From an uncultured Thermoplasmatales archaeon (GTDB taxonomy: Archaea > Thermoplasmatota > SW-10-69-26 > JACQPN01 > CAZDGP01), in the NCBI GenBank assembly GCA_964505085.1, contig CAZDGP010000002.1:32421-96420 (forward strand): a DNA stretch of 64,000 nt, given 5' to 3'. The translations under genes and the position numbers were made by a program. Below the pieces are notes generated by a model. The model made no database searches. It was not told the DNA's origin and saw only the letters and a list, made by a program, of their open reading frames with translations. Positions 945 to 63,103 of this stretch are shown here, piece by piece. Position 1 is the stretch's first letter. Each line of letters begins with the position of its first letter.

Positions 945-963
945 GCTCATAAGGTTTCTTGTG
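945..963 (-). promoter_or_regulatory. BRE/TATA promoter motif (minus-strand ACAAGAAACCTTATGAG) about 21-40 nt upstream of the carboxypeptidase start. The transcript is likely leaderless.
   Basis: The same extended motif recurs upstream of 5464 and 33065 and is related to 24374, 48965 and 50571. Consensus is AGAAACC-TTA(T/A)(G/A)(A/T). Confidence 0.45.
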
Positions 964-1000: not shown

Positions 1001-1020
1001 ACCTATAGTTGCCTATAGGT
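1001..1020. repeat. Palindromic element ACCTATAG-ttgc-CTATAGGT (two CCTATAG half-sites, 10-bp spacing).
   Basis: A perfect inverted repeat seen directly. The same architecture occurs at 45747-45767 and as a triplet at 63073-63103. Confidence 0.5.
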
Positions 1021-3528: not shown

Positions 3529-3547
3529 CACCTCAACATCCCCATCG

Positions 3548-3562
3548 AGAACTTATATAGCT
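3548..3562. promoter_or_regulatory. Bidirectional TATA box (AACTTATATAGC, near-palindromic) shared by the divergent genes at 3528 (-) and 3581 (+).
   Basis: The TATA-like TTATATAG is about 22-25 nt from both start codons. BRE-like AGAAC/CAAGAAG flank it on each strand. Confidence 0.5.
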
Positions 3563-3580
3563 TCTTGTAGATGGGAACGT

Positions 3581-3994
3581 ATGAGCCGTGTAGGTCGTCC
3601 CCGGAGCGTGGAGCGGCCACCCTGCCCCGAGTGCGAGCGGGAGGACCGCGTGGTGGCCCACGGTCTCCGCACCGTGGACGGGGAGCCCCGGCGGAGGTTC
3701 CGGTGCGAGCGCTGCGGCAAGGGGTTCGTGCCCGGTGCCGAGGACAGACGGCCCGACGATGCGGTGCGGGCGGCGGTGCGCAGGGTTCGGGGGGAGACCG
3801 ACGCCAGCTACCGGCTCCTCGCCGACGCTCTCACGAACCACCTGGGCATCGACGTGAGCCACACCACCGTGGGGACGTGGTGCCGCGCGGAGGCGGATGA
3901 CGACGCGGTGGAGGGGGTGCCCTGTGAGTACCTCAGCCTCCTGTGGGCGCTCCGCCAGGAGATCGAGACGGACCTCCCCGGCGACGGATCGTAA
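3581..3994 (+). CDS. IS1 InsA-like zinc-ribbon plus HTH protein (solo orfA-like gene; no transposase orfB adjacent).
   Basis: CPECEREDRVVAHG..RFRCERCGKGF (two CxxC pairs) followed by an HTH-like LLADALTNHLGIDVSHTTVGTWCR, matching the InsA layout. The start is taken at the internal ATG 3581, 25 nt after the TATA; the longer track ORF is an N-terminal over-extension. Confidence 0.5.
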   Translation: MSRVGRPRSVERPPCPECEREDRVVAHGLRTVDGEPRRRFRCERCGKGFVPGAEDRRPDDAVRAAVRRVRGETDASYRLLADALTNHLGIDVSHTTVGTWCRAEADDDAVEGVPCEYLSLLWALRQEIETDLPGDGS

Positions 3995-4024: not shown

Positions 4025-5464
4025 CTACGTGCGACCCCGCCGGTGCCGGAGGACGAGCCCCGCCGCCACGAGCGCCACCAGGGACAGGGCCGGGGGCACG
4101 GGCACCTCGGCACCCGTGGCGCCGGCGGCGCTCGCGCCGCCGGTGGCCTGGAGGTCCACCCCGTCCTCCACGGTGCCGTTCTCGAGGCTCGCTTCACCCT
4201 CGGTGGGCAGGGTGAGGACGTACCGGTGGAGGCCGCGCTTGTCGTCCAGGGGCCGCTTCTTGTAGGAGATCGTGACCTGGTGCTCGCCCTCGCTCAGGGG
4301 CTCGGGCAGGAGCACGCTCGTGGCGTTGCCGGCGGCCACGCCGGGCACGGTGACGGTGCGCTCCTCACCGCGGTCGTCCACCACGGTGACGGTGGCGTCG
4401 GTGAGGTTGCCCCAGCCCACGTTCTCCAGGTCCAGCACCAGACCCTCGTCCTCCCCGTGGACGTCCACAGCCTGGAGGTTCGCACCGTAGAGGTGCACGT
4501 TCAGGAACGCGTGCTGGAGGGCACGCCAGGACTCCCGCTCCATCTCCTCGATCTGCTCCGTGTACGCTGGCGGCCCCCAGGGGAAGCCCTTGCTGTTGCG
4601 GCCGCTCATCTCGAAGCTCCAGCTGTTGGCGCCCGTGAGCTCGTACCCGCTGTCGCTCGTGATGCCGCTGGCGGGGTAGATGGTGCTCCAGGTCTCGCCG
4701 CAGTCCTCCCGCACATCGTGCAGGACCTCGTCGCAGATGCTCTCGTACACCTGCCGGTCGTCGGGGTGGGCGTGGCGGCCCTCGATGCCGTAGGGGTAGA
4801 GCCAGAGGTTGCCGCAGCAGTGGATGCTGAGGACGTAGTCGGGGTCCACCTCCTCCCACACGCCCATGACCGCCCGGGTCTCGGGCTCGCTGGCGGGGTA
4901 GGGTCCGGGGTTGTTCACCACGGGGGTCTCGTCCACGTCGTACCATCCCACGGGGAAGTTCCGGTTGATGTTCACGCCCTTGTCGTTGAGGCGGCCCACC
5001 CCGTTCATGCTCCCCTCGGGGTTCACCAGGGGCAGCACCACGGTGTGGCGGTTCTCCACGATCCATGTGGCGGTGTCGTTCTCCCCGTACCCCTCCACGA
5101 GCTCCCGGAGCGCGTGCATGGTGAAGATGACGCCGATGTACTCGTTGGCGTGGGTGCCCCCGTCGATGTAGAGGACCTCCCGCTCGTCCAGGGGCTTCCG
5201 GTCCTCGTCCTCGAAGTTCGCCACCTCCACCCACCACAGGTCGAAGCCGGCGCTGGACTGCCCCGCGCTGTGGAGCCGTAGGATGTCCTTGTGCTCGGTG
5301 GCCATACCCCGGAGCTCCGCCGTGAGCACGGGGTACGTGGGGTAGGCCTTCGCGGGTCCGGCGGTGCTGCTCACGGGAGGGCTCTGGGCTGCCGCTCCCG
5401 GGATGATGGAGGCGCCCGGGAGCACGAGCGTGAGCGCGAGGATGAGGGGAAGCGCGCGCTTCAT
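4025..5464 (-). CDS. Zinc carboxypeptidase, M14 family. Secreted, with a C-terminal hydrophobic anchor and basic tail.
   Basis: 479 aa with an N-terminal signal peptide. M14 motifs are HANEYIG, NINRNFP and SIHCCGNLWLYPYG. The C-terminus ..PPALSLVALVAAGLVLRHRRGRT resembles an archaeosortase-type sorting signal. Confidence 0.9.
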   Translation of the reverse strand: MKRALPLILALTLVLPGASIIPGAAAQSPPVSSTAGPAKAYPTYPVLTAELRGMATEHKDILRLHSAGQSSAGFDLWWVEVANFEDEDRKPLDEREVLYIDGGTHANEYIGVIFTMHALRELVEGYGENDTATWIVENRHTVVLPLVNPEGSMNGVGRLNDKGVNINRNFPVGWYDVDETPVVNNPGPYPASEPETRAVMGVWEEVDPDYVLSIHCCGNLWLYPYGIEGRHAHPDDRQVYESICDEVLHDVREDCGETWSTIYPASGITSDSGYELTGANSWSFEMSGRNSKGFPWGPPAYTEQIEEMERESWRALQHAFLNVHLYGANLQAVDVHGEDEGLVLDLENVGWGNLTDATVTVVDDRGEERTVTVPGVAAGNATSVLLPEPLSEGEHQVTISYKKRPLDDKRGLHRYVLTLPTEGEASLENGTVEDGVDLQATGGASAAGATGAEVPVPPALSLVALVAAGLVLRHRRGRT

Positions 5465-5488
5465 GGAGCCCCCAGCTTGAGGAGGGCT

Positions 5489-5503
5489 TCATAAGGTTTC
5501 TTG
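5489..5503 (-). promoter_or_regulatory. BRE/TATA promoter motif (minus-strand ACAAGAAACCTTATG) upstream of the carboxypeptidase gene at 5464.
   Basis: Same motif as at 945-963 and 33088-33105. Confidence 0.45.
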
Positions 5504-5550
5504 TAGCACGGCTCCCCGCCCCACGAGCCCCCCGGAGGGTCACGTCGTGG

Positions 5551-7188
5551 TCATGGTGCCGCGGGCAACGTGAACCGGAACGTGGTCCCCTCCCCGCCGG
5601 GAGCGGTCTCGATGCTGACCTCCCCGCCGTAGCTCTCCACGATGCGCTTCACGATGGCGAGGCCGATGCCGGTGCCGTCGGCACCGGACTTGGGGTGGAG
5701 GCGCTGGAAGATGTCGAAGACACGGTCCCTGTGGCGCTCCGGGATGCCCATGCCGTTGTCGGTGATGCGGAAGGCCACCATCCCGTCCTCCTCCCGGGCG
5801 TCCACCTCCACCTCCGGGGGGACGTCGGGGCGGTGGAACTTCAACGCGTTGGAGAGGAGGTTCGTGAGGACCTGCGCCAGGTGCGTGGGGTCCACCTCCA
5901 CCACCGGGAGAGCCTCCTCCACGTGGACGGTGCCGCCGGTGGACTCGATGGTCCCGTCCAGGTCCGCGAGCACCGACGCCAGCACCTGCTCTGGGTCCAC
6001 GAGGCGCGCGTGCCCGTCACCGCTTTGCAACTGCGCGTAGGAGAGCAGGTCCTTCACGATGGCGTCCATGCGCTCGACCCCGTCCCGGGCGAACTCGATG
6101 TACTCCCGCGCCTCCTCCGGGAGGTCCTCGCCGTATCGGCGCTCCAGGAGCTGGACGTAGCTCCCCACGGTGCGCAGGGGGCTGCGGAGGTCGTGGCTCG
6201 CCACGAGGGCGTACCGCTCCAGCTCCTGGTTCGAGACCTCGAGCTCCCGGAGCACCCGGGCGCGTTGCGTAACGTCCGTGGAGACACCCACCACGCGCTC
6301 CACCTCACCGTCGGGACCGAAGACCGGTTGGTACCACGTGTCCAGCACCACGTCCCCCAGGTCGAGCTCCACCCGCAGCTGCTCCCCCTCGAGGGCTGCG
6401 TCCAGAGCGTCGAGAACCTCCGGGAAGTCCGCGTACATCTCGAAGGCGTCGTTCCCCACGGCCTCGTGGGGTTCCAACCCCAACGCCGAGAGGCCGCGTC
6501 CATCGCTGAAGGTGATGGTCCCGCCGGGGTCCAGGGCGAAGAGGATGATGGGCGCGCCCTCCACCACCGTGCGGAGGTGCGCCTGGCTTCGCTCCAGCTC
6601 CTCCTTGGCTTCCCGGGTCTCCTCCATGAGAGCCCGCATGCGCTCCCGACCCCGGGACTGTGCCAGGGTCTCCTCCGCCAGGAGACCCCCCAGCGCCCCC
6701 ACGAAGACGATGTAGAGGCTCTGCAGCGCCCACTCGCCGAGGTTCGCGGTGAGCTCGCCGGCGAAGGCGAGCATGGCGCCGTAGGCCAAACCGTACCCGA
6801 CGCTCACCACGAGGGTCTCCCGGAGGTCGTAGCGGAAGGCGATGGCGGCGATGCTCACGTACCACAGCATGAAGAAGGGGCTCGAGAAGACCCCGGTGGC
6901 GAGGATCCAGAACGTGATGAGGCCCGCGTCCGAGATGGAGGTGAAGTAGCTCGTGAGGACCACGGGGAAGTGCCGGTAGGGCTCGAAGAGGATGGTGCCG
7001 GCGGAGTAGGCCCCCGCGACGCCGATGATGGTGTAGGCGAGCCAGGGGATGGTGCCCGACTTCTCCATGAGGAGGAGGTAGAAGAGGCTGTTCACCGCCA
7101 CCACCGCGAAGCGCACGATGGCTACGTTGCGCTCCGCCGCGTAGACCTTCTCGGCGACGGCCTGGTCATCGAAGGAGGGCGGAGCCAT
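5551..7188 (-). CDS. Sensor histidine kinase (N-terminal multi-TM domain, PAS, HisKA, HATPase_c).
   Basis: HisKA H-box LVASHDLRSPL, N/G boxes LSNALKF..ITDNGMGIP..GTGIGLAIV, and an N-terminal hydrophobic region. Confidence 0.9.
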   Translation of the reverse strand: MAPPSFDDQAVAEKVYAAERNVAIVRFAVVAVNSLFYLLLMEKSGTIPWLAYTIIGVAGAYSAGTILFEPYRHFPVVLTSYFTSISDAGLITFWILATGVFSSPFFMLWYVSIAAIAFRYDLRETLVVSVGYGLAYGAMLAFAGELTANLGEWALQSLYIVFVGALGGLLAEETLAQSRGRERMRALMEETREAKEELERSQAHLRTVVEGAPIILFALDPGGTITFSDGRGLSALGLEPHEAVGNDAFEMYADFPEVLDALDAALEGEQLRVELDLGDVVLDTWYQPVFGPDGEVERVVGVSTDVTQRARVLRELEVSNQELERYALVASHDLRSPLRTVGSYVQLLERRYGEDLPEEAREYIEFARDGVERMDAIVKDLLSYAQLQSGDGHARLVDPEQVLASVLADLDGTIESTGGTVHVEEALPVVEVDPTHLAQVLTNLLSNALKFHRPDVPPEVEVDAREEDGMVAFRITDNGMGIPERHRDRVFDIFQRLHPKSGADGTGIGLAIVKRIVESYGGEVSIETAPGGEGTTFRFTLPAAP

Positions 7189-8849: not shown

Positions 8850-9089
8850 GGTGCCGTTCGTCTGCGCAGGTGCTTCGCCCCGTGCACGAGCAGGTGCCCG
8901 GGTGCACCCGACCCAGCCCGAAGCCGCTTCGGCACTTGTGCTTCCGCCTATTTAGGGCTTCCCTCATGGACCCTTGCCCATGCGGACCTTCAACACCCCT
9001 AGGGGAGAGTCCCTGGGTTTCAAGTAGGGGAAGCGACCGTTTTCCGGTACGTCCGCGGGGGTGTCGGAGCGCTCCCGGGAGGTTGGTCC

Positions 9090-9674: not shown

Positions 9675-10056
9675 AGCCAAGGAAAGGTTGGGTCAGATCC
9701 TCGACGGCCATCTGGGGTCAGACGGGGTGCTGGGAACGAGCCTCGTGAGCCGCGACGGCATCCCCGTGCTCTCCCGCTTGACGGAGCGCATGGAGGATAT
9801 GCCCTTCAGCCTCCTCGTGGAGGGCGCCATGGCCGCCACCCTCATGGGTGCGGCCGAGGTGGCGGTGCAGGAGGTGGGTGGCGGTCCTCCCCGCCGTGTC
9901 GTGGTGGAGACCGAGAAGGTGAACATGGTCCTCGTGGGCGTGAGCAACGACCTCATCCTCGTCACGGTGGCGGAGTCCGCCGCTGAGCTCGGGGAGCTGA
10001 TGAGGGCCGTTGGCGTCGCCGCCGAGGACGTGGCGGAGGCGGTGGCGTCAGCGTGA
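9664..10056 (+). CDS. Roadblock/LC7 domain protein (MglB-like).
   Basis: MVGEAKERLGQILDGHLGSDGVLGTSLVSRDGIPVLSRL..SLLVEGAMAATLMGAAE..VNMVLVGVSNDLILVTV is a typical Roadblock/LC7 profile. Translationally coupled to its neighbours. Confidence 0.75.
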   Translation: MVGEAKERLGQILDGHLGSDGVLGTSLVSRDGIPVLSRLTERMEDMPFSLLVEGAMAATLMGAAEVAVQEVGGGPPRRVVVETEKVNMVLVGVSNDLILVTVAESAAELGELMRAVGVAAEDVAEAVASA

Positions 10057-24346: not shown

Positions 24347-24373
24347 CCCCCGCCTGCCTTCGGAAACCTTAAG

Positions 24374-24387
24374 TAGAACGTCCGTTC
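24374..24387 (+). promoter_or_regulatory. BRE/TATA (GAAACCTTAAGTAG) about 35 nt upstream of the secreted-protein gene.
   Basis: Matches the window-wide promoter consensus. Confidence 0.4.
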
Positions 24388-28910: not shown

Positions 28911-28959
28911 TTACGTGTAATGCACGTGTAGTATAAAGGATTTTACGTGTCTTGCACGT
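28911..28959. promoter_or_regulatory. Bidirectional AT-rich TATA (GTATAAAGGA, 28931-28940) flanked symmetrically by two operator-like inverted repeats.
   Basis: Left repeat TTACGTGTAATGCACGT (28911-28927) and right repeat TTACGTGTCTTGCACGT (28943-28959). Each sits between the TATA and the predicted TSS of the minus operon and the plus ncRNA candidate respectively. Confidence 0.5.
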
Positions 28960-29843: not shown

Positions 29844-29858
29844 CGAAACGCTTTATAC
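29844..29858 (+). promoter_or_regulatory. BRE (CGAAACG) plus TATA (CTTTATAC) 29 nt upstream of ATG 29887 (leaderless).
   Basis: Classic archaeal TTTATA box. Confidence 0.45.
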
Positions 29859-31847: not shown

Positions 31848-33065
31848 TCACTCACCCACGAGCTTCAGCACCTGCACGTCGCTGGCGCCGGTGTACACGT
31901 AGCCCTCGTGGTACCGGGCGTCCCACACGCTCGTGGCGGGCTCGGCGATGTCCAGGATCCGGGGCTCGCTGGGGTCGTCGAAGTTCACCATCATGGTGCC
32001 ACCCTCGTACCATCCCATGACGAGGACGTTGCGGTCGTCGATGACGTCGCCGAAGTGGCTGCCGCAGTTCGCCCGGGGACCGTCCTCGGGCGTGGGGCGC
32101 TGGATGTGGCTCATCTGCTTGGGGTTCTCGGGGTCGCTGATGTCGTAGAACCACGCCGCCGCCGTGGGCGTCTGCAGGGTCGTGACGCCCGCGTCCTCGC
32201 GGAAGCAGTTCGGGGCGATGAACTCGTCGTTGAGGATGAGCACGTCACCCTCGGTGTTGGTCACGGCCTGGTGGTGGTACCAGATGCGGGGGTCGTCGAT
32301 GAGGCTCAACCACTCGGGGTCCTTGGGGTCCTCGCTGATGTCCCAGATGAAGCTCTCGCCGCCGCCCTCGCCGTAGCGGCTGCCGCCGCCGGCGCAGAAG
32401 GCGAGGCCCATGTCCTCCCGCACGGTGATGTCGTGGCACCCGTTGCTCGTGACGGCCACGCCGTCCACGGTGGCGGGGATGGGGAACTCGAAGAGCTCAG
32501 GGTCCTCGGGGTTCGCGGCGTCGAGGCCGTAGATGGCGTCGCCGGCGCCGCTGTTGTAGATGATGCTCGTGCCCTCCACCACGGCCACGTTGTGGGCGGT
32601 GGTGCCGCCGGGGAGCTTGGTGGTGCTCAGGAGCTTCGGGGCCGTGGGGTCGGTGGCGTCCACGAGGTGGATGCCGTCGCTGGAGCCGCCGAGCACGGCG
32701 ATGCGCTGCCCGCCCTCGAGGTGCAGGACGTCGACGTCCCGGGCGTACACGTCGCCCAGGGTACTGAGCGTCTGGGGGTTGGCGGGGTCGGTGATGTTGG
32801 CGATGGTGAGGCCGCCACCGAGGCTCGTGGCGAAGAGGAGATCCGCCTCCTCGTCGAACCAGATCCCGGAGCCGCCGCTTGCCTCGGTCTCGAGCACCGC
32901 GGCCTCCTCGAACCCGGTGATGATGTCCGGGAGCATCGCGGCGGTGGCATCCGCGAGGTCGTCGACGTTCTGCTGGTCGAGGGAACCGTCCTCCACGGGC
33001 TGGACGCATCCCGCCAGGAGGCTCCCCAGGATGAGGACCGATGCTACGAGGGCCGTGCTACGCAT
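31848..33065 (-). CDS. Secreted lipoprotein with a beta-propeller (LVIVD-repeat-like) domain.
   Basis: Signal peptide plus lipobox LLAGC. Repeated ..G.A.DV.V.G.. blades. 405 aa. Confidence 0.75.
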   Translation of the reverse strand: MRSTALVASVLILGSLLAGCVQPVEDGSLDQQNVDDLADATAAMLPDIITGFEEAAVLETEASGGSGIWFDEEADLLFATSLGGGLTIANITDPANPQTLSTLGDVYARDVDVLHLEGGQRIAVLGGSSDGIHLVDATDPTAPKLLSTTKLPGGTTAHNVAVVEGTSIIYNSGAGDAIYGLDAANPEDPELFEFPIPATVDGVAVTSNGCHDITVREDMGLAFCAGGGSRYGEGGGESFIWDISEDPKDPEWLSLIDDPRIWYHHQAVTNTEGDVLILNDEFIAPNCFREDAGVTTLQTPTAAAWFYDISDPENPKQMSHIQRPTPEDGPRANCGSHFGDVIDDRNVLVMGWYEGGTMMVNFDDPSEPRILDIAEPATSVWDARYHEGYVYTGASDVQVLKLVGE

Positions 33066-33087
33066 AGGGGCGCGAGTCGATCCAGCA

Positions 33088-33105
33088 ACTTAAAGGGTTT
33101 CTTGT
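33088..33105 (-). promoter_or_regulatory. BRE/TATA (minus-strand ACAAGAAACCCTTTAAGT) for the lipoprotein gene.
   Basis: Same extended motif as at the two carboxypeptidase genes. Confidence 0.45.
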
Positions 33106-33204
33106 ACACGCGTCGTCGGGGCGGTGCGAGGGGGACACGAAGAGAGCGTCACGATAGCTTTGAAGTGCCGGGGGAAGGATGGGGCGACCTGGAGGCAGTG
33201 CAAC

Positions 33205-44335: not shown

Positions 44336-45637
44336 ATGCCCTCCGAGAAGCCCATCCTGCAGGTGGCCCTCGACGTGTACAACATCCACCGCGCCCTGGA
44401 GATCGCGGAGGAGGCCGTGGAGGGCGGCGCCGACTGGGTGGAGGCCGGCACGCCCCTCATCAAGAGCGAGGGGTTGAACGCCGTCCGCGACCTGAAGAAG
44501 GCCTTCCCCGACCGCACCGTGGTGGCCGATATGAAGACCATGGACACGGGGAGCCTCGAGACCGAGATGGCCATCAAAGCTGGCGCGGGCGTCGTGACGA
44601 TCCTGGGCGCAAGCCACGATGGCACCATCCGGGAGGCGGTGGAGGCCGCCCGCAAGTACGGCGGGGAGGTCATGGTGGACCTCATCGGCGTGGAGGACAA
44701 GCCCGCCCGCGCCCGGGAGGTGGAGGAGCTCGGGGCCCACTACGTGGGGCTCCACGTGGGCGTGGACGAGCAGATGGAGGGCCTGAGCCCCGTGGACCTC
44801 GTGCGGGACGTGGTGGAGGCCACGAGCCTCCCCGTGGCCATCGCTGGGGGTCTCACGAGCGAGACCGTGGCGCCCCTCGTGGAGGCTGGCGCCCGCGTCA
44901 TCATCGTGGGCGGGGCCATCCACAAGGCCCAGGACGCCACCGAAGCCGCGAGGCGCCTGCGCCGGGCGCTGGACGATCTGGAGGTGGTGGAGTCCCAGGG
45001 GTTCCGCAAGTTCGACGAGACCGAGCTCCGGGAGGCCTTCACCCTGGCGAGCACCGCCAACGTGAGCGACGCCATGCACCGGGAGGGCGCCATGGACGGC
45101 CTCCACCCGGTGACGGAGGGGGCCAAGGCCGTGGGGCGGGCGGTTACGGTCCGCTGCATGGACGGGGACTGGGCCAAGCCCGTGGAGGCCATCGACGAGG
45201 CGGAGGAGGGCGACGTCCTCGTCATCCGTGTGGACGGCACCGATGCCGCCGTGTGGGGGGAGCTCGCGAGCCACTCCTGCATGATGAACGGCATCGCGGG
45301 CGTGGTCATCGACGGCGCCATCCGGGACGTGGAGGACATCCGCGAGATGGGGTTCCCCGCGTGGGCGCGGGTGGAGCGCCCCAACGCCGGCGATCCCAAG
45401 GGCTTCGGCGAGGTGGGGGTGGAGGTCACGTGCGGGAACCAGCGGGTGCGCGCCGGCGACTGGATCGTGGCCGACGAGAGCGGCGTCGTCGTGGTGCCCC
45501 GGGACCAGGCGGTGGAGCTCGCGAACCGCGCGGTGGACGTGAAGGAGCAGGAGGACCGCCTCCGGGAGGAGATCAAGCGGGGCTCCTCGCTTTCGAAGGT
45601 GCTGAAGCTCAAGAAGTGGGAGAAGGTCGTCGGGTAG
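44336..45637 (+). CDS. Bifunctional 3-hexulose-6-phosphate synthase (N-terminal) and RraA/MenG-family domain (C-terminal).
   Basis: N-terminus ILQVALDV..GADWVEAGTPLIK..VADMKTMD is an HPS/OMPDC fold. C-terminus ..VVIDGAIRDVEDIREMGFPAWAR.. is an RraA-family signature. Confidence 0.85.
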   Translation: MPSEKPILQVALDVYNIHRALEIAEEAVEGGADWVEAGTPLIKSEGLNAVRDLKKAFPDRTVVADMKTMDTGSLETEMAIKAGAGVVTILGASHDGTIREAVEAARKYGGEVMVDLIGVEDKPARAREVEELGAHYVGLHVGVDEQMEGLSPVDLVRDVVEATSLPVAIAGGLTSETVAPLVEAGARVIIVGGAIHKAQDATEAARRLRRALDDLEVVESQGFRKFDETELREAFTLASTANVSDAMHREGAMDGLHPVTEGAKAVGRAVTVRCMDGDWAKPVEAIDEAEEGDVLVIRVDGTDAAVWGELASHSCMMNGIAGVVIDGAIRDVEDIREMGFPAWARVERPNAGDPKGFGEVGVEVTCGNQRVRAGDWIVADESGVVVVPRDQAVELANRAVDVKEQEDRLREEIKRGSSLSKVLKLKKWEKVVG

Positions 45638-45655
45638 AGTCTACCCGACGACCTT
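45623..45655 (+). terminator. Perfect 15-bp stem/3-nt loop hairpin whose 5' arm is the last four codons plus the TAG stop of the HPS-RraA gene.
   Basis: aaggtcgtcgggtag-agt-ctacccgacgacctt. It is followed by two more hairpins (cggatgc-gga-gcatccg at about 45667; ggtggttggata-acgggc-tatccaaccacc at about 45700). Confidence 0.4.
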
Positions 45656-45746
45656 CCGGCCGTGCCGAGGCGGATGCGGAGCATCCGATGAGGTGCGGGC
45701 GTGAAGGTGGTTGGATAACGGGCTATCCAACCACCCATCCACCCCC

Positions 45747-45767
45747 ACCTATAGCGCCCTATAGGGG
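45747..45767. repeat. Palindromic element ACCTATAG-cgcc-CTATAGGGG (same architecture as 1001-1020).
   Basis: Seen directly. Half-sites are 10 bp apart. Confidence 0.5.
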
Positions 45768-45873
45768 CCTCTGGGCCCATGGGTCCAGGGTCCCCGGGTG
45801 CATCCTGCACCTTCCCCCCTACCGCAACCCTCCTACCCATCGAAACATACATCTGCCCTACAGGTGACGCTTC

Positions 45874-46212
45874 GTGCAGTACCTCGCAACGCTCGTGGTG
45901 GTCCTTGACATCCTCGTGGCCGCCTTCGTGGCCACCCTCCTCACGAGGTTCTGGACGGGGGACCACGTGGAGGAGAGCGTCCGGGAGCTCCGGGAGCACC
46001 ACCGCACATGGGCCTGGGGGGCCACGCTCCTCATACCAGGGATCCTCCTGAACGTCCCCGCCACCCTCTCGGCGGGCATGGACAACGCCCTCTGGACGGA
46101 CCTCCTCATGCTCGCGGGGTACCCCTTCTTCATGGCGGGCATCTACCTCATGTACGACTCGACGCACCCGGGGGACCCCGACGACGGCCCCGCGACGGAG
46201 GTGGGAGCATAG
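45874..46212 (+). CDS. Small membrane protein (3 TM), GTG start.
   Basis: MQYLATLVVVLDILVAAFVATLL.. is hydrophobic and protein-like. Confidence 0.5.
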   Translation: MQYLATLVVVLDILVAAFVATLLTRFWTGDHVEESVRELREHHRTWAWGATLLIPGILLNVPATLSAGMDNALWTDLLMLAGYPFFMAGIYLMYDSTHPGDPDDGPATEVGA

Positions 46213-50570: not shown

Positions 50571-50585
50571 TCCTATATAAGGTTG
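50571..50585 (-). promoter_or_regulatory. S12-S7 operon promoter (minus-strand AACCTTATATAGGATG), about 65-nt leader.
   Basis: TATA consensus match. Confidence 0.45.
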
Positions 50586-50657
50586 GTGGGGCGTTTCGGG
50601 GGTGGATCCACGGCGGATGCGAGAGGGGGGGAGGGGGTGGTGGGAGCGGCGCCAGTG

Positions 50658-63072: not shown

Positions 63073-63103
63073 AACCTATAGGGACCTATAGGGCCCTATA
63101 GGT
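63073..63103. repeat. Three tandem 10-bp-phased palindromic CCTATAGG units (ACCTATAGGG ACCTATAGGG CCCTATAGGT) between the convergent zupT and nfo genes.
   Basis: Seen directly. Each 8-mer is self-complementary. Confidence 0.55.

Follow-up and report, generated by a model that had tools for sequence, protein, structure and literature searches.

The window, by which we mean the whole 64-kb stretch of DNA analysed here (GC 0.65–0.72; the host is an uncultured Thermoplasmatota archaeon of ~69% GC), contains three short arrays of palindromic boxes. Array 1 (1001–1020) lies between two minus-strand genes, namely an OsmC gene (1091–1660; Pfam OsmC), the stop codon of which is 71 nt from the array, and a gene for a secreted M14 carboxypeptidase, the ATG of which (924) is 77 nt away on the other side, in agreement with the placement given by an earlier sequence-only reading. 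Within this spacer, the array is situated between a terminator-like hairpin with a TTTT tract behind OsmC (~1039–1076) and the BRE/TATA element of the carboxypeptidase gene (945–958, minus strand; 17.4 bits), ~45–60 bp upstream of the latter. Array 2 (45747–45766) is in a 236-bp spacer between the stop codon (45637, plus strand) of its upstream neighbour, a hexulose-phosphate-synthase/RraA-like (HPS/RraA-like) fusion gene, and the start (45874, plus strand) of a 112-aa ORF without a Pfam match that is membrane-like as judged by eye only; the array is ~80–95 bp upstream of the weak TATA-like box of this ORF (45842–45854). Array 3 (63074–63103) occupies half of a 63-bp spacer between the convergent genes for a ZIP transporter (stop 63067, plus strand) and endonuclease IV (stop 63131, minus strand), both assigned by Pfam. 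Three ORFs adjacent to the arrays were considered as toxin-antitoxin (TA)-like genes starting at GTG 1002 (minus strand), ATG 45779 and GTG 63102, and were rejected on composition; GTG 1002 as a start is also contradicted by the position of the signal peptide at the real carboxypeptidase start.

The surroundings of the arrays hold several other features. On the minus strand, ~15–55 nt past the OsmC stop codon (1039–1076), a GC-rich hairpin, CCGGGTTGCCGCG/CGCGGCACCCGGG, is followed by CCCCCTTTTCC; from its sequence it resembles a bacterial-style terminator, here in an archaeon. The stop codon of the HPS/RraA-like gene is spanned by a perfect inverted repeat of 17 bp, GAAGGTCGTCGGGTAGA-c-TCTACCCGACGACCTTC (45622–45656), and a perfect hairpin with a 12-bp stem, GGTGGTTGGATA-acgggc-TATCCAACCACC (45706–45735), lies just upstream of array 2; neither has a second copy in the window or matches an Rfam family. 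A single variant box, CCTACAGG (45857–45864), lies between the weak TATA-like box and the GTG start of the 112-aa ORF; boxes with one mismatch occur at chance frequency in the window, and this one may mean nothing. The secreted carboxypeptidase next to array 1 has a secreted M14 paralogue 4.5 kb away (1–924 and 4025–5488; 75–78% nucleotide identity in blocks, including a repeat at 38–337 and 4599–4898 with a spacing of 4561). The promoters of the two genes are near-identical, and an array is present upstream of the first only. A stand-alone ORF of ~137 aa (~3582–3994, plus strand), divergent from a methyltransferase gene, encodes a CxxC...CxxC zinc ribbon and has a weak match to HTH_32, a transposase-type helix-turn-helix (HTH), with no transposase catalytic domain after it; its product may be a DNA-binding domain of transposase origin that was domesticated as a regulator.

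The three arrays, which we read as they had been described previously, are built from 10-bp units placed head to tail. Array 1 (ACCTATAGttgCCTATAGGT) consists of the two units ACCTATAGTT and GCCTATAGGT, which form a 20-bp palindrome, ACCTATAG-N4-CTATAGGT, with an imperfect extension to 993–1028. Array 2 (ACCTATAGcgcCCTATAGGG) has two perfect units, ACCTATAGCG and CCCTATAGGG, and after them a third that is degenerate, GCCTCTGGGC (45767–45776), and spans 45747–45776 with this unit included. Array 3 consists of three units (ACCTATAGGG, ACCTATAGGG and CCCTATAGGT), and all of its 30 bp are palindromic around the middle unit. Each array is self-palindromic over its entire length. The 10-bp step is exact in 4/4 pairs of adjacent units and the 7-nt core CCTATAG is unchanged in all seven units, five of which have the full 8-bp palindrome CCTATAGG, while the 3-nt spacers vary between units (TTG, CGC, GGA, GGC and others), and arrays 1 and 2 have differing spacers. 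The outer edges of the units lean to A...T, such that an idealized unit reads ACCTATAGGT, a palindrome of 10 bp. As judged from this sequence, the arrays look like a site of the classical kind for a symmetric dimer with cooperative binding along one DNA face.

To quantify the enrichment, the counts in the 64-kb window were compared with chance expectation. CCTATAGG was found five times compared to 0.07 expected, and none of 100 dinucleotide-preserving shuffles reached this number; CTATAG was found seven times compared to 0.87 expected, and all seven copies are within the arrays. Similarly, the phased pattern CTRTAG-N4-CTRTAG with at most one mismatch gave eight matches, i.e. four sites on both strands, compared to 0.05 expected, and a scan for phased patterns with mismatches allowed identified no more degenerate arrays in the window. 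Among the 256 8-bp palindromes, CCTATAGG has the highest ratio of observed to expected copies (5 vs 0.10; Poisson P 8e-8, ~2e-5 after Bonferroni correction), and the remaining 8-bp palindromes in excess are GC-rich and of a type common in coding DNA. None of the three arrays lies within a gene (P ~5e-4 given ~8% intergenic and ~92% coding DNA, based on a rough gene map of the window). The sequence-only reading had called AT-containing palindromes conspicuous in DNA of ~70% GC and had suggested a genome-wide comparison of their frequency and intergenic location with chance; made on the 64 kb, this comparison confirms the observation, and the arrays are far beyond chance.

We also considered how the same core could have come to lie at three unrelated loci. 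Outside the boxes, the flanks of the arrays show no alignable sequence. Target-site duplications are absent, and the window has no second copy of the flanking hairpins. Therefore, the arrays are not copies of a miniature inverted-repeat transposable element (MITE) or other small mobile element, nor the result of a segmental duplication. Rather, the combination of an invariant core, differing spacers and unrelated flanks argues for sequence-specific selection instead of recent duplication or mobility.

Because all three arrays come shortly after a stop codon (8–110 nt; array 3 after two), they might act at the level of nucleic acid as hairpins, that is, as elements of RNA 3' ends or RNA stability, or as cruciforms or recombination sites in DNA. 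Each array can fold with a stem of 7–10 bp, and array 3 lies within a longer possible stem, CCCCGAACC...GGTTGGGG. Most intergenic DNA likewise comes after a stop codon, and the potential to form a hairpin is uninformative, being inherent in any phased array of a self-complementary core. Moreover, the folding z-scores are modest (−1.4 to −3.5), array 2 is not the preferred pairing in its larger context, and the stems are short, A/U-rich and next to much stronger GC hairpins. No T-run follows array 2 in a scan of 45400–46000 or, by reading, arrays 1 and 3; the TTTT behind OsmC belongs to the separate GC hairpin (1047–1076) rather than to array 1. Taken together, we regard a function as hairpins as improbable.

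The sequence-only reading had also offered tandem TATA-like decoys as an explanation. From A/T-rich intergenic islands and subsequent EM refinement over the 5' regions of genes in the window, we derived the promoter consensus of the host, GAAACCTTATATAG, composed of a BRE (GAAA) and a TATA box (CCTTATATA) and usually located 20–35 nt before the start codon, implying leaderless or short-leader mRNAs. A window-wide matrix scan yielded ~20 promoters at 10–20 bits; promoters with this signature are at 945–958 (−), 3547–3560 (+), 5487–5500 (−), 24363–24376 (+), 28931–28944 (−), 29845–29858 (+), 33088–33101 (−) and 50573–50586 (−). The arrays and the BRE/TATA promoter are both among the few A/T-containing motifs in intergenic DNA and have the string ACCT.ATA in common, and the unit AACCTATAGG is similar to part of real promoters (AACCTTATATAGG at 50573–50586 and CCTATTTAGG at 8947–8956) as well as to TATA boxes of related MAGs (ACCTATAAGTA and CCTATAAATG). 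Hence, the boxes could be recognized by TBP/TFB as cryptic or bidirectional promoters, e.g. of unannotated small RNAs, a palindromic TATA being able to drive both directions, or they could serve as decoys for these basal factors. However, the best score within the arrays is 6.2 bits (rank 117) and their other positions score at most 2.2 bits, and the units have neither the GAAA BRE nor the T-rich half of the promoter and only four A/T positions. None of the arrays has a gene start 20–35 nt downstream (the closest are at 77 and 108 nt, and array 3 has none), Rfam searches at gathering and permissive thresholds identified no meaningful RNA genes near the arrays, and we know of no promoter design with tandem TATA boxes at exactly 10 bp. 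Array 1 is an element separate from a normal promoter, and at array 3 there is no promoter that it could serve. These low scores leave the decoy idea unsupported, and we consider recognition as TATA boxes an unlikely basis for the arrays; given that TATA boxes like ACCTATAAGTA are in use in related MAGs, a weak interaction of TBP with the arrays is conceivable.

Four promoters, all listed on the minus strand (945–962, 5487–5505, 33086–33106 and 3548–3572), additionally have in common a longer extension, (T)ACAAGAA(A/G)C, immediately upstream of the TATA box. Two of them are those of the M14 carboxypeptidase paralogues; the other two belong to a gene for a SAM-methyltransferase and to the gene at 31848–33089. 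Judged by its sequence and position, the extension could be an extended BRE or the site of a shared regulator.

A different possibility is that the DNA of the arrays is structural. (A/T)4 and (G/C)5–6 alternate in the arrays with a period of 10 bp, which is the classical DNA-wrapping rule known from nucleosome-positioning sequences, and 30 bp is about the footprint of one archaeal histone dimer. Accordingly, the alternation of TATA with GGGNCC every 10 bp could, by anisotropic bendability, position an architectural protein, such as a histone, that need not recognize specific bases. Such a constraint would tolerate TTAA, AAAT and similar words, whereas CCTATAG is exact in every unit; furthermore, arrays of 20–30 bp are very short for positioning, and no histone, Alba or HTa gene was found in the window. 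We therefore give a purely structural role very little weight.

To look beyond the window, we examined related archaeal DNA. The EF-2 protein encoded in the window is archaeal; its next relative is 78% identical and the remaining matches are to Thermoplasmatota/Thermoplasmata MAGs. CTATAG is absent from the 17.7-kb contig with the nearest EF-2 relative (L086), no array is present upstream of the three closest carboxypeptidase homologues (L162–L164) or downstream of a ZIP homologue (L165), and no orphan array was found in ~120 kb of related archaeal DNA (L055, L086, L096–L106, L162–L165), in which CTATAG is essentially confined to TA operators. In the closest relatives available, at 64–67% protein identity, the spacers that correspond to those of arrays 1 and 3 are devoid of arrays. 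As far as can be seen from these sequences, the orphan arrays appear to be lineage-specific. Because they are absent from the relatives examined, evolutionary conservation provides no argument for them.

The TA operators came to light when GTDB representative genomes were scanned for CTATAG-N4-CTATAG-N4-CTATAG. The matches listed include many unrelated bacteria, a Thermoplasmatales MAG of 67% GC (L055) and an Aenigmatarchaeota MAG (L066), and in the two archaea the arrays are directly before homologous genes for proteins of 75–76 aa with 41% identity. L055 and L066 were found by the pattern itself and are subject to selection bias, and four more loci (L096, L101, L103 and L105), all on archaeal contigs of 60–66% GC, were retrieved by protein homology. 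In 6/6 loci, the gene for the 76-aa protein, which contains DUF7557, is followed by a gene for a ParE/RelE toxin and preceded by a TATA box and then three hexamers at an exact 10-bp phase (L055, 287–312; L066, 2941–2966; L096, ~3535–3559; L101, ~9951–9975; L103, ~6120–6145; L105, ~2441–2466). The central hexamer is CTATAG, the flanking hexamers are CTATAG, CTGTAG, TTGTAG or CTGTAA-like, and the arrays usually end at the ATG. The hosts are high-GC Thermoplasmatota/Euryarchaeota MAGs and the one Aenigmatarchaeota MAG; one assembly, GCA_019347805.1, contains both a DUF7557 locus and one of the closest homologues of the carboxypeptidase in the window. When the proteins were scanned directly, Pfam reported DUF7557 (E 9e-8 and 3e-4) and, weakly, the ribbon-helix-helix (RHH) family RHH_1 (E 0.006), and DUF7557 has sub-threshold matches to RelB-like, ParD and BfmA RHH families. 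A low-confidence AlphaFold2 monomer (pLDDT 65) has an extended N-terminus followed by two helices, as expected of an RHH protein. There was no significant match in a PDB sequence search with the DUF7557 profile or, using hhalign, to a CopG sequence, and we found no literature on DUF7557, while a text search with the motif gave only primers. From their position, we infer that the phased CTATAG hexamers would be the autoregulatory operator of an RHH-like DUF7557 antitoxin.

Further scans covered metagenomes and viral contigs. A metagenome scan for three copies of CCTATAGG-N2 identified nine loci, eight of low GC (0.33–0.49) and one of 0.60, with tandem or palindromic arrays of A/T-spaced units that are unrelated to the lineage of the window. 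In viral contigs, phased triples of CTATAG are present at 50 loci, and the control hexamers GTATAC, CATATG and GATATC gave 58, 23 and 24 loci, respectively. Because these counts are similar, we rejected phased CTATAG as a special cross-domain signal; its broad taxonomic spread is explained by how common 10-bp tandem repeats and phased operators are in general. Likewise, CCTATAG-N3-CCTATAGG is found at 55 loci in viral contigs, which is about chance level, and the sole matches of high GC (L143 and L147) look, as judged by eye from GC and ORF content, like phage that infect a bacterium of high GC. Because other phased palindromic hexamer triples are about as common in viral contigs, the motif by itself has no diagnostic value. 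Two groups of loci merit separate mention. Ten viral contigs of ~40% GC (L109, L118, L122, L123, L132, L137, L138, L139, L150 and L158) share the same array of 4–5 units, CCTATAGATACCTATAGATATCCTATAGTATCCTATAGG, followed by GGTATACAGGGGGG; in a single phage lineage, this array could serve as an origin, as iterons or as an operator. In bacteria, non-tandem arrays of three CTATAG boxes are located just upstream of restriction-modification or defence-type genes. In one type (L022, 3266–3291; L079, 6178–6203; L031, 1288–1313; L051, 2481–2506), a conserved 90-aa protein without a Pfam match, which may be an undescribed controller protein, precedes a C5 or N4/N6 DNA methyltransferase; in a second (L019, 2081–2106), the gene encodes a MerR-HTH-methyltransferase fusion; and in a third (L003, 149–174; L029, 624–649; L069, 5650–5675), with an array nearly identical to that of L019, it encodes an AAA ATPase. 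The methyltransferase and MerR-HTH assignments are based on motifs recognized by eye and the AAA ATPase assignment on Pfam.

The DUF7557-ParE operators and the arrays in the window share the CTATAG hexamer, the exact 10-bp phase and up to three units, and occur in related organisms. The DUF7557-ParE operators lie between a TATA box and the antitoxin ATG and their flanking hexamers are often degenerate (CTGTAG and TTGTAG), and, in contrast to the boxes in the window, they do not keep the outer C/G of CCTATAGG. No antitoxin and ParE/RelE genes flank arrays 1–3. A further possibility is that the arrays have no present function, being either solo-operator relics of lost mobile TA cassettes or 10-bp minisatellites that arose by slippage and chance. 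TA cassettes with such operators are mobile and found in varied intergenic spots, the arrays are missing in all relatives examined, and triples of palindromic hexamers in phase are in general not rare; array 3 is, in addition, a near-perfect tandem repeat and the only array reported by TRF (period 10, 2.9 copies, 94% matches). Slippage, however, cannot make one core at three places, whereas the three independent loci have exactly the same 7–8-nt core with different spacers and unrelated flanks, and the chance probability of the counts was given as below 1e-5 even after correction. Decaying relics, in turn, would not remain perfect in 7/7 units, and no remnants of TA genes flank the arrays. We conclude that an absence of function is possible but rather unlikely.

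Our working hypothesis, which we hold tentatively and at somewhat less than an even chance, is that the arrays are orphan operator-like sites in which each box would be occupied by one symmetric dimer and the dimers would bind cooperatively on one DNA face. Specifically, the binder would be a sequence-specific protein with two-fold symmetry, most plausibly an RHH dimer, encoded elsewhere in the genome; one dimer would insert into the major groove at each CCTATAGG box within a full unit of about ACCTATAGGT, and two or three dimers would cooperate. The proposal in the sequence-only reading of a dimeric or oligomeric binder on one DNA face therefore holds in part: the palindromic box, the 10-bp phasing, the invariant core and the analogy to RHH operators are consistent with it, whereas a gene for the binder is absent from the window. 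Specifically, no DUF7557 or other RHH gene was detected in the 64 kb by tblastn, a six-frame profile search and a survey of small ORFs, and the search for homologues brought up no relative of DUF7557 that could be assigned to this MAG. Because the boxes in the window have the extra conserved C/G flanks, the binder need not be of the DUF7557 family, and a two-box palindrome would be just as fitting a site for an HTH dimer. Against RHH autoregulation is that arrays 1 and 2 are 45–95 bp upstream of the TATA box and that array 3 is in a convergent spacer; because there is no overlap with a core promoter and array 3 is between convergent genes, classical autorepression is most likely not their function. 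The arrays are situated between a terminator-like hairpin and the next promoter (array 1), in a long structured spacer (array 2) and between convergent genes (array 3). We speculate that the outcome of binding would be regulation from upstream or a barrier or insulator of bound protein between neighbouring transcription units, and these positions would fit such roles better than promoter occlusion.

If the arrays are bound by protein, they would be a clean and easily recognized cis-element in an uncultured archaeal lineage of very high GC that, to our knowledge, has no known regulatory sites. The palindromic boxes one turn apart tie the arrays to RHH regulators of TA systems and plasmids, and their positions outside of promoters hint at insulation, roadblock or architecture rather than autorepression. 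The density in the window is about one array per 20 kb. A bolder scenario, to which we assign only a small probability, is that the lineage has spread dozens of orphan ACCTATAGGT arrays across its intergenic DNA that would be bound by a domesticated antitoxin-type RHH protein as roadblocks, insulators or chromosome-organising sites; if true, this would represent a regulon-scale reuse of the TA operator design in an archaeon. We see the value of the arrays as a lead and not as a discovery, in that the sequence observation is solid and the function inferred.

Finally, we compared the arrays with known systems. The operators of RHH type II antitoxins, including ParD2:ParE2 and E. coli RelB/relO, consist of palindromic boxes of 4–8 bp in 2–4 repeats separated by about one helical turn, which puts the dimers on one DNA face with cooperative binding, and CopG, Arc and MetJ are further RHH-type operator systems. 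RelB RHH dimers bind the hexad repeats of relO on one DNA face (PMC2812701). In V. cholerae ParD2:ParE2, three RHH dimers bind three imperfect 6-bp palindromes in consecutive major grooves, and the complex binds DNAs of 21 bp with two boxes and 31 bp with three boxes (bioRxiv 10.1101/2021.03.22.436508). The 20-bp two-box and 30-bp three-box arrays in the window match these DNAs in size. The arrays have the short self-complementary box of RHH operators and at least two boxes one helical turn apart. Unlike known RHH operators, which overlap the promoter of the regulator's own operon, the arrays are outside of core promoters or between convergent genes, and, unlike RHH antitoxin operators, they have no regulator gene, and hence no cognate RHH gene, alongside. 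Phased palindromic operator arrays are already well known; what is new is this uncharacterised one in an uncultured archaeal lineage, and the arrays are unusual only in their detachment from a regulator gene or core promoter.
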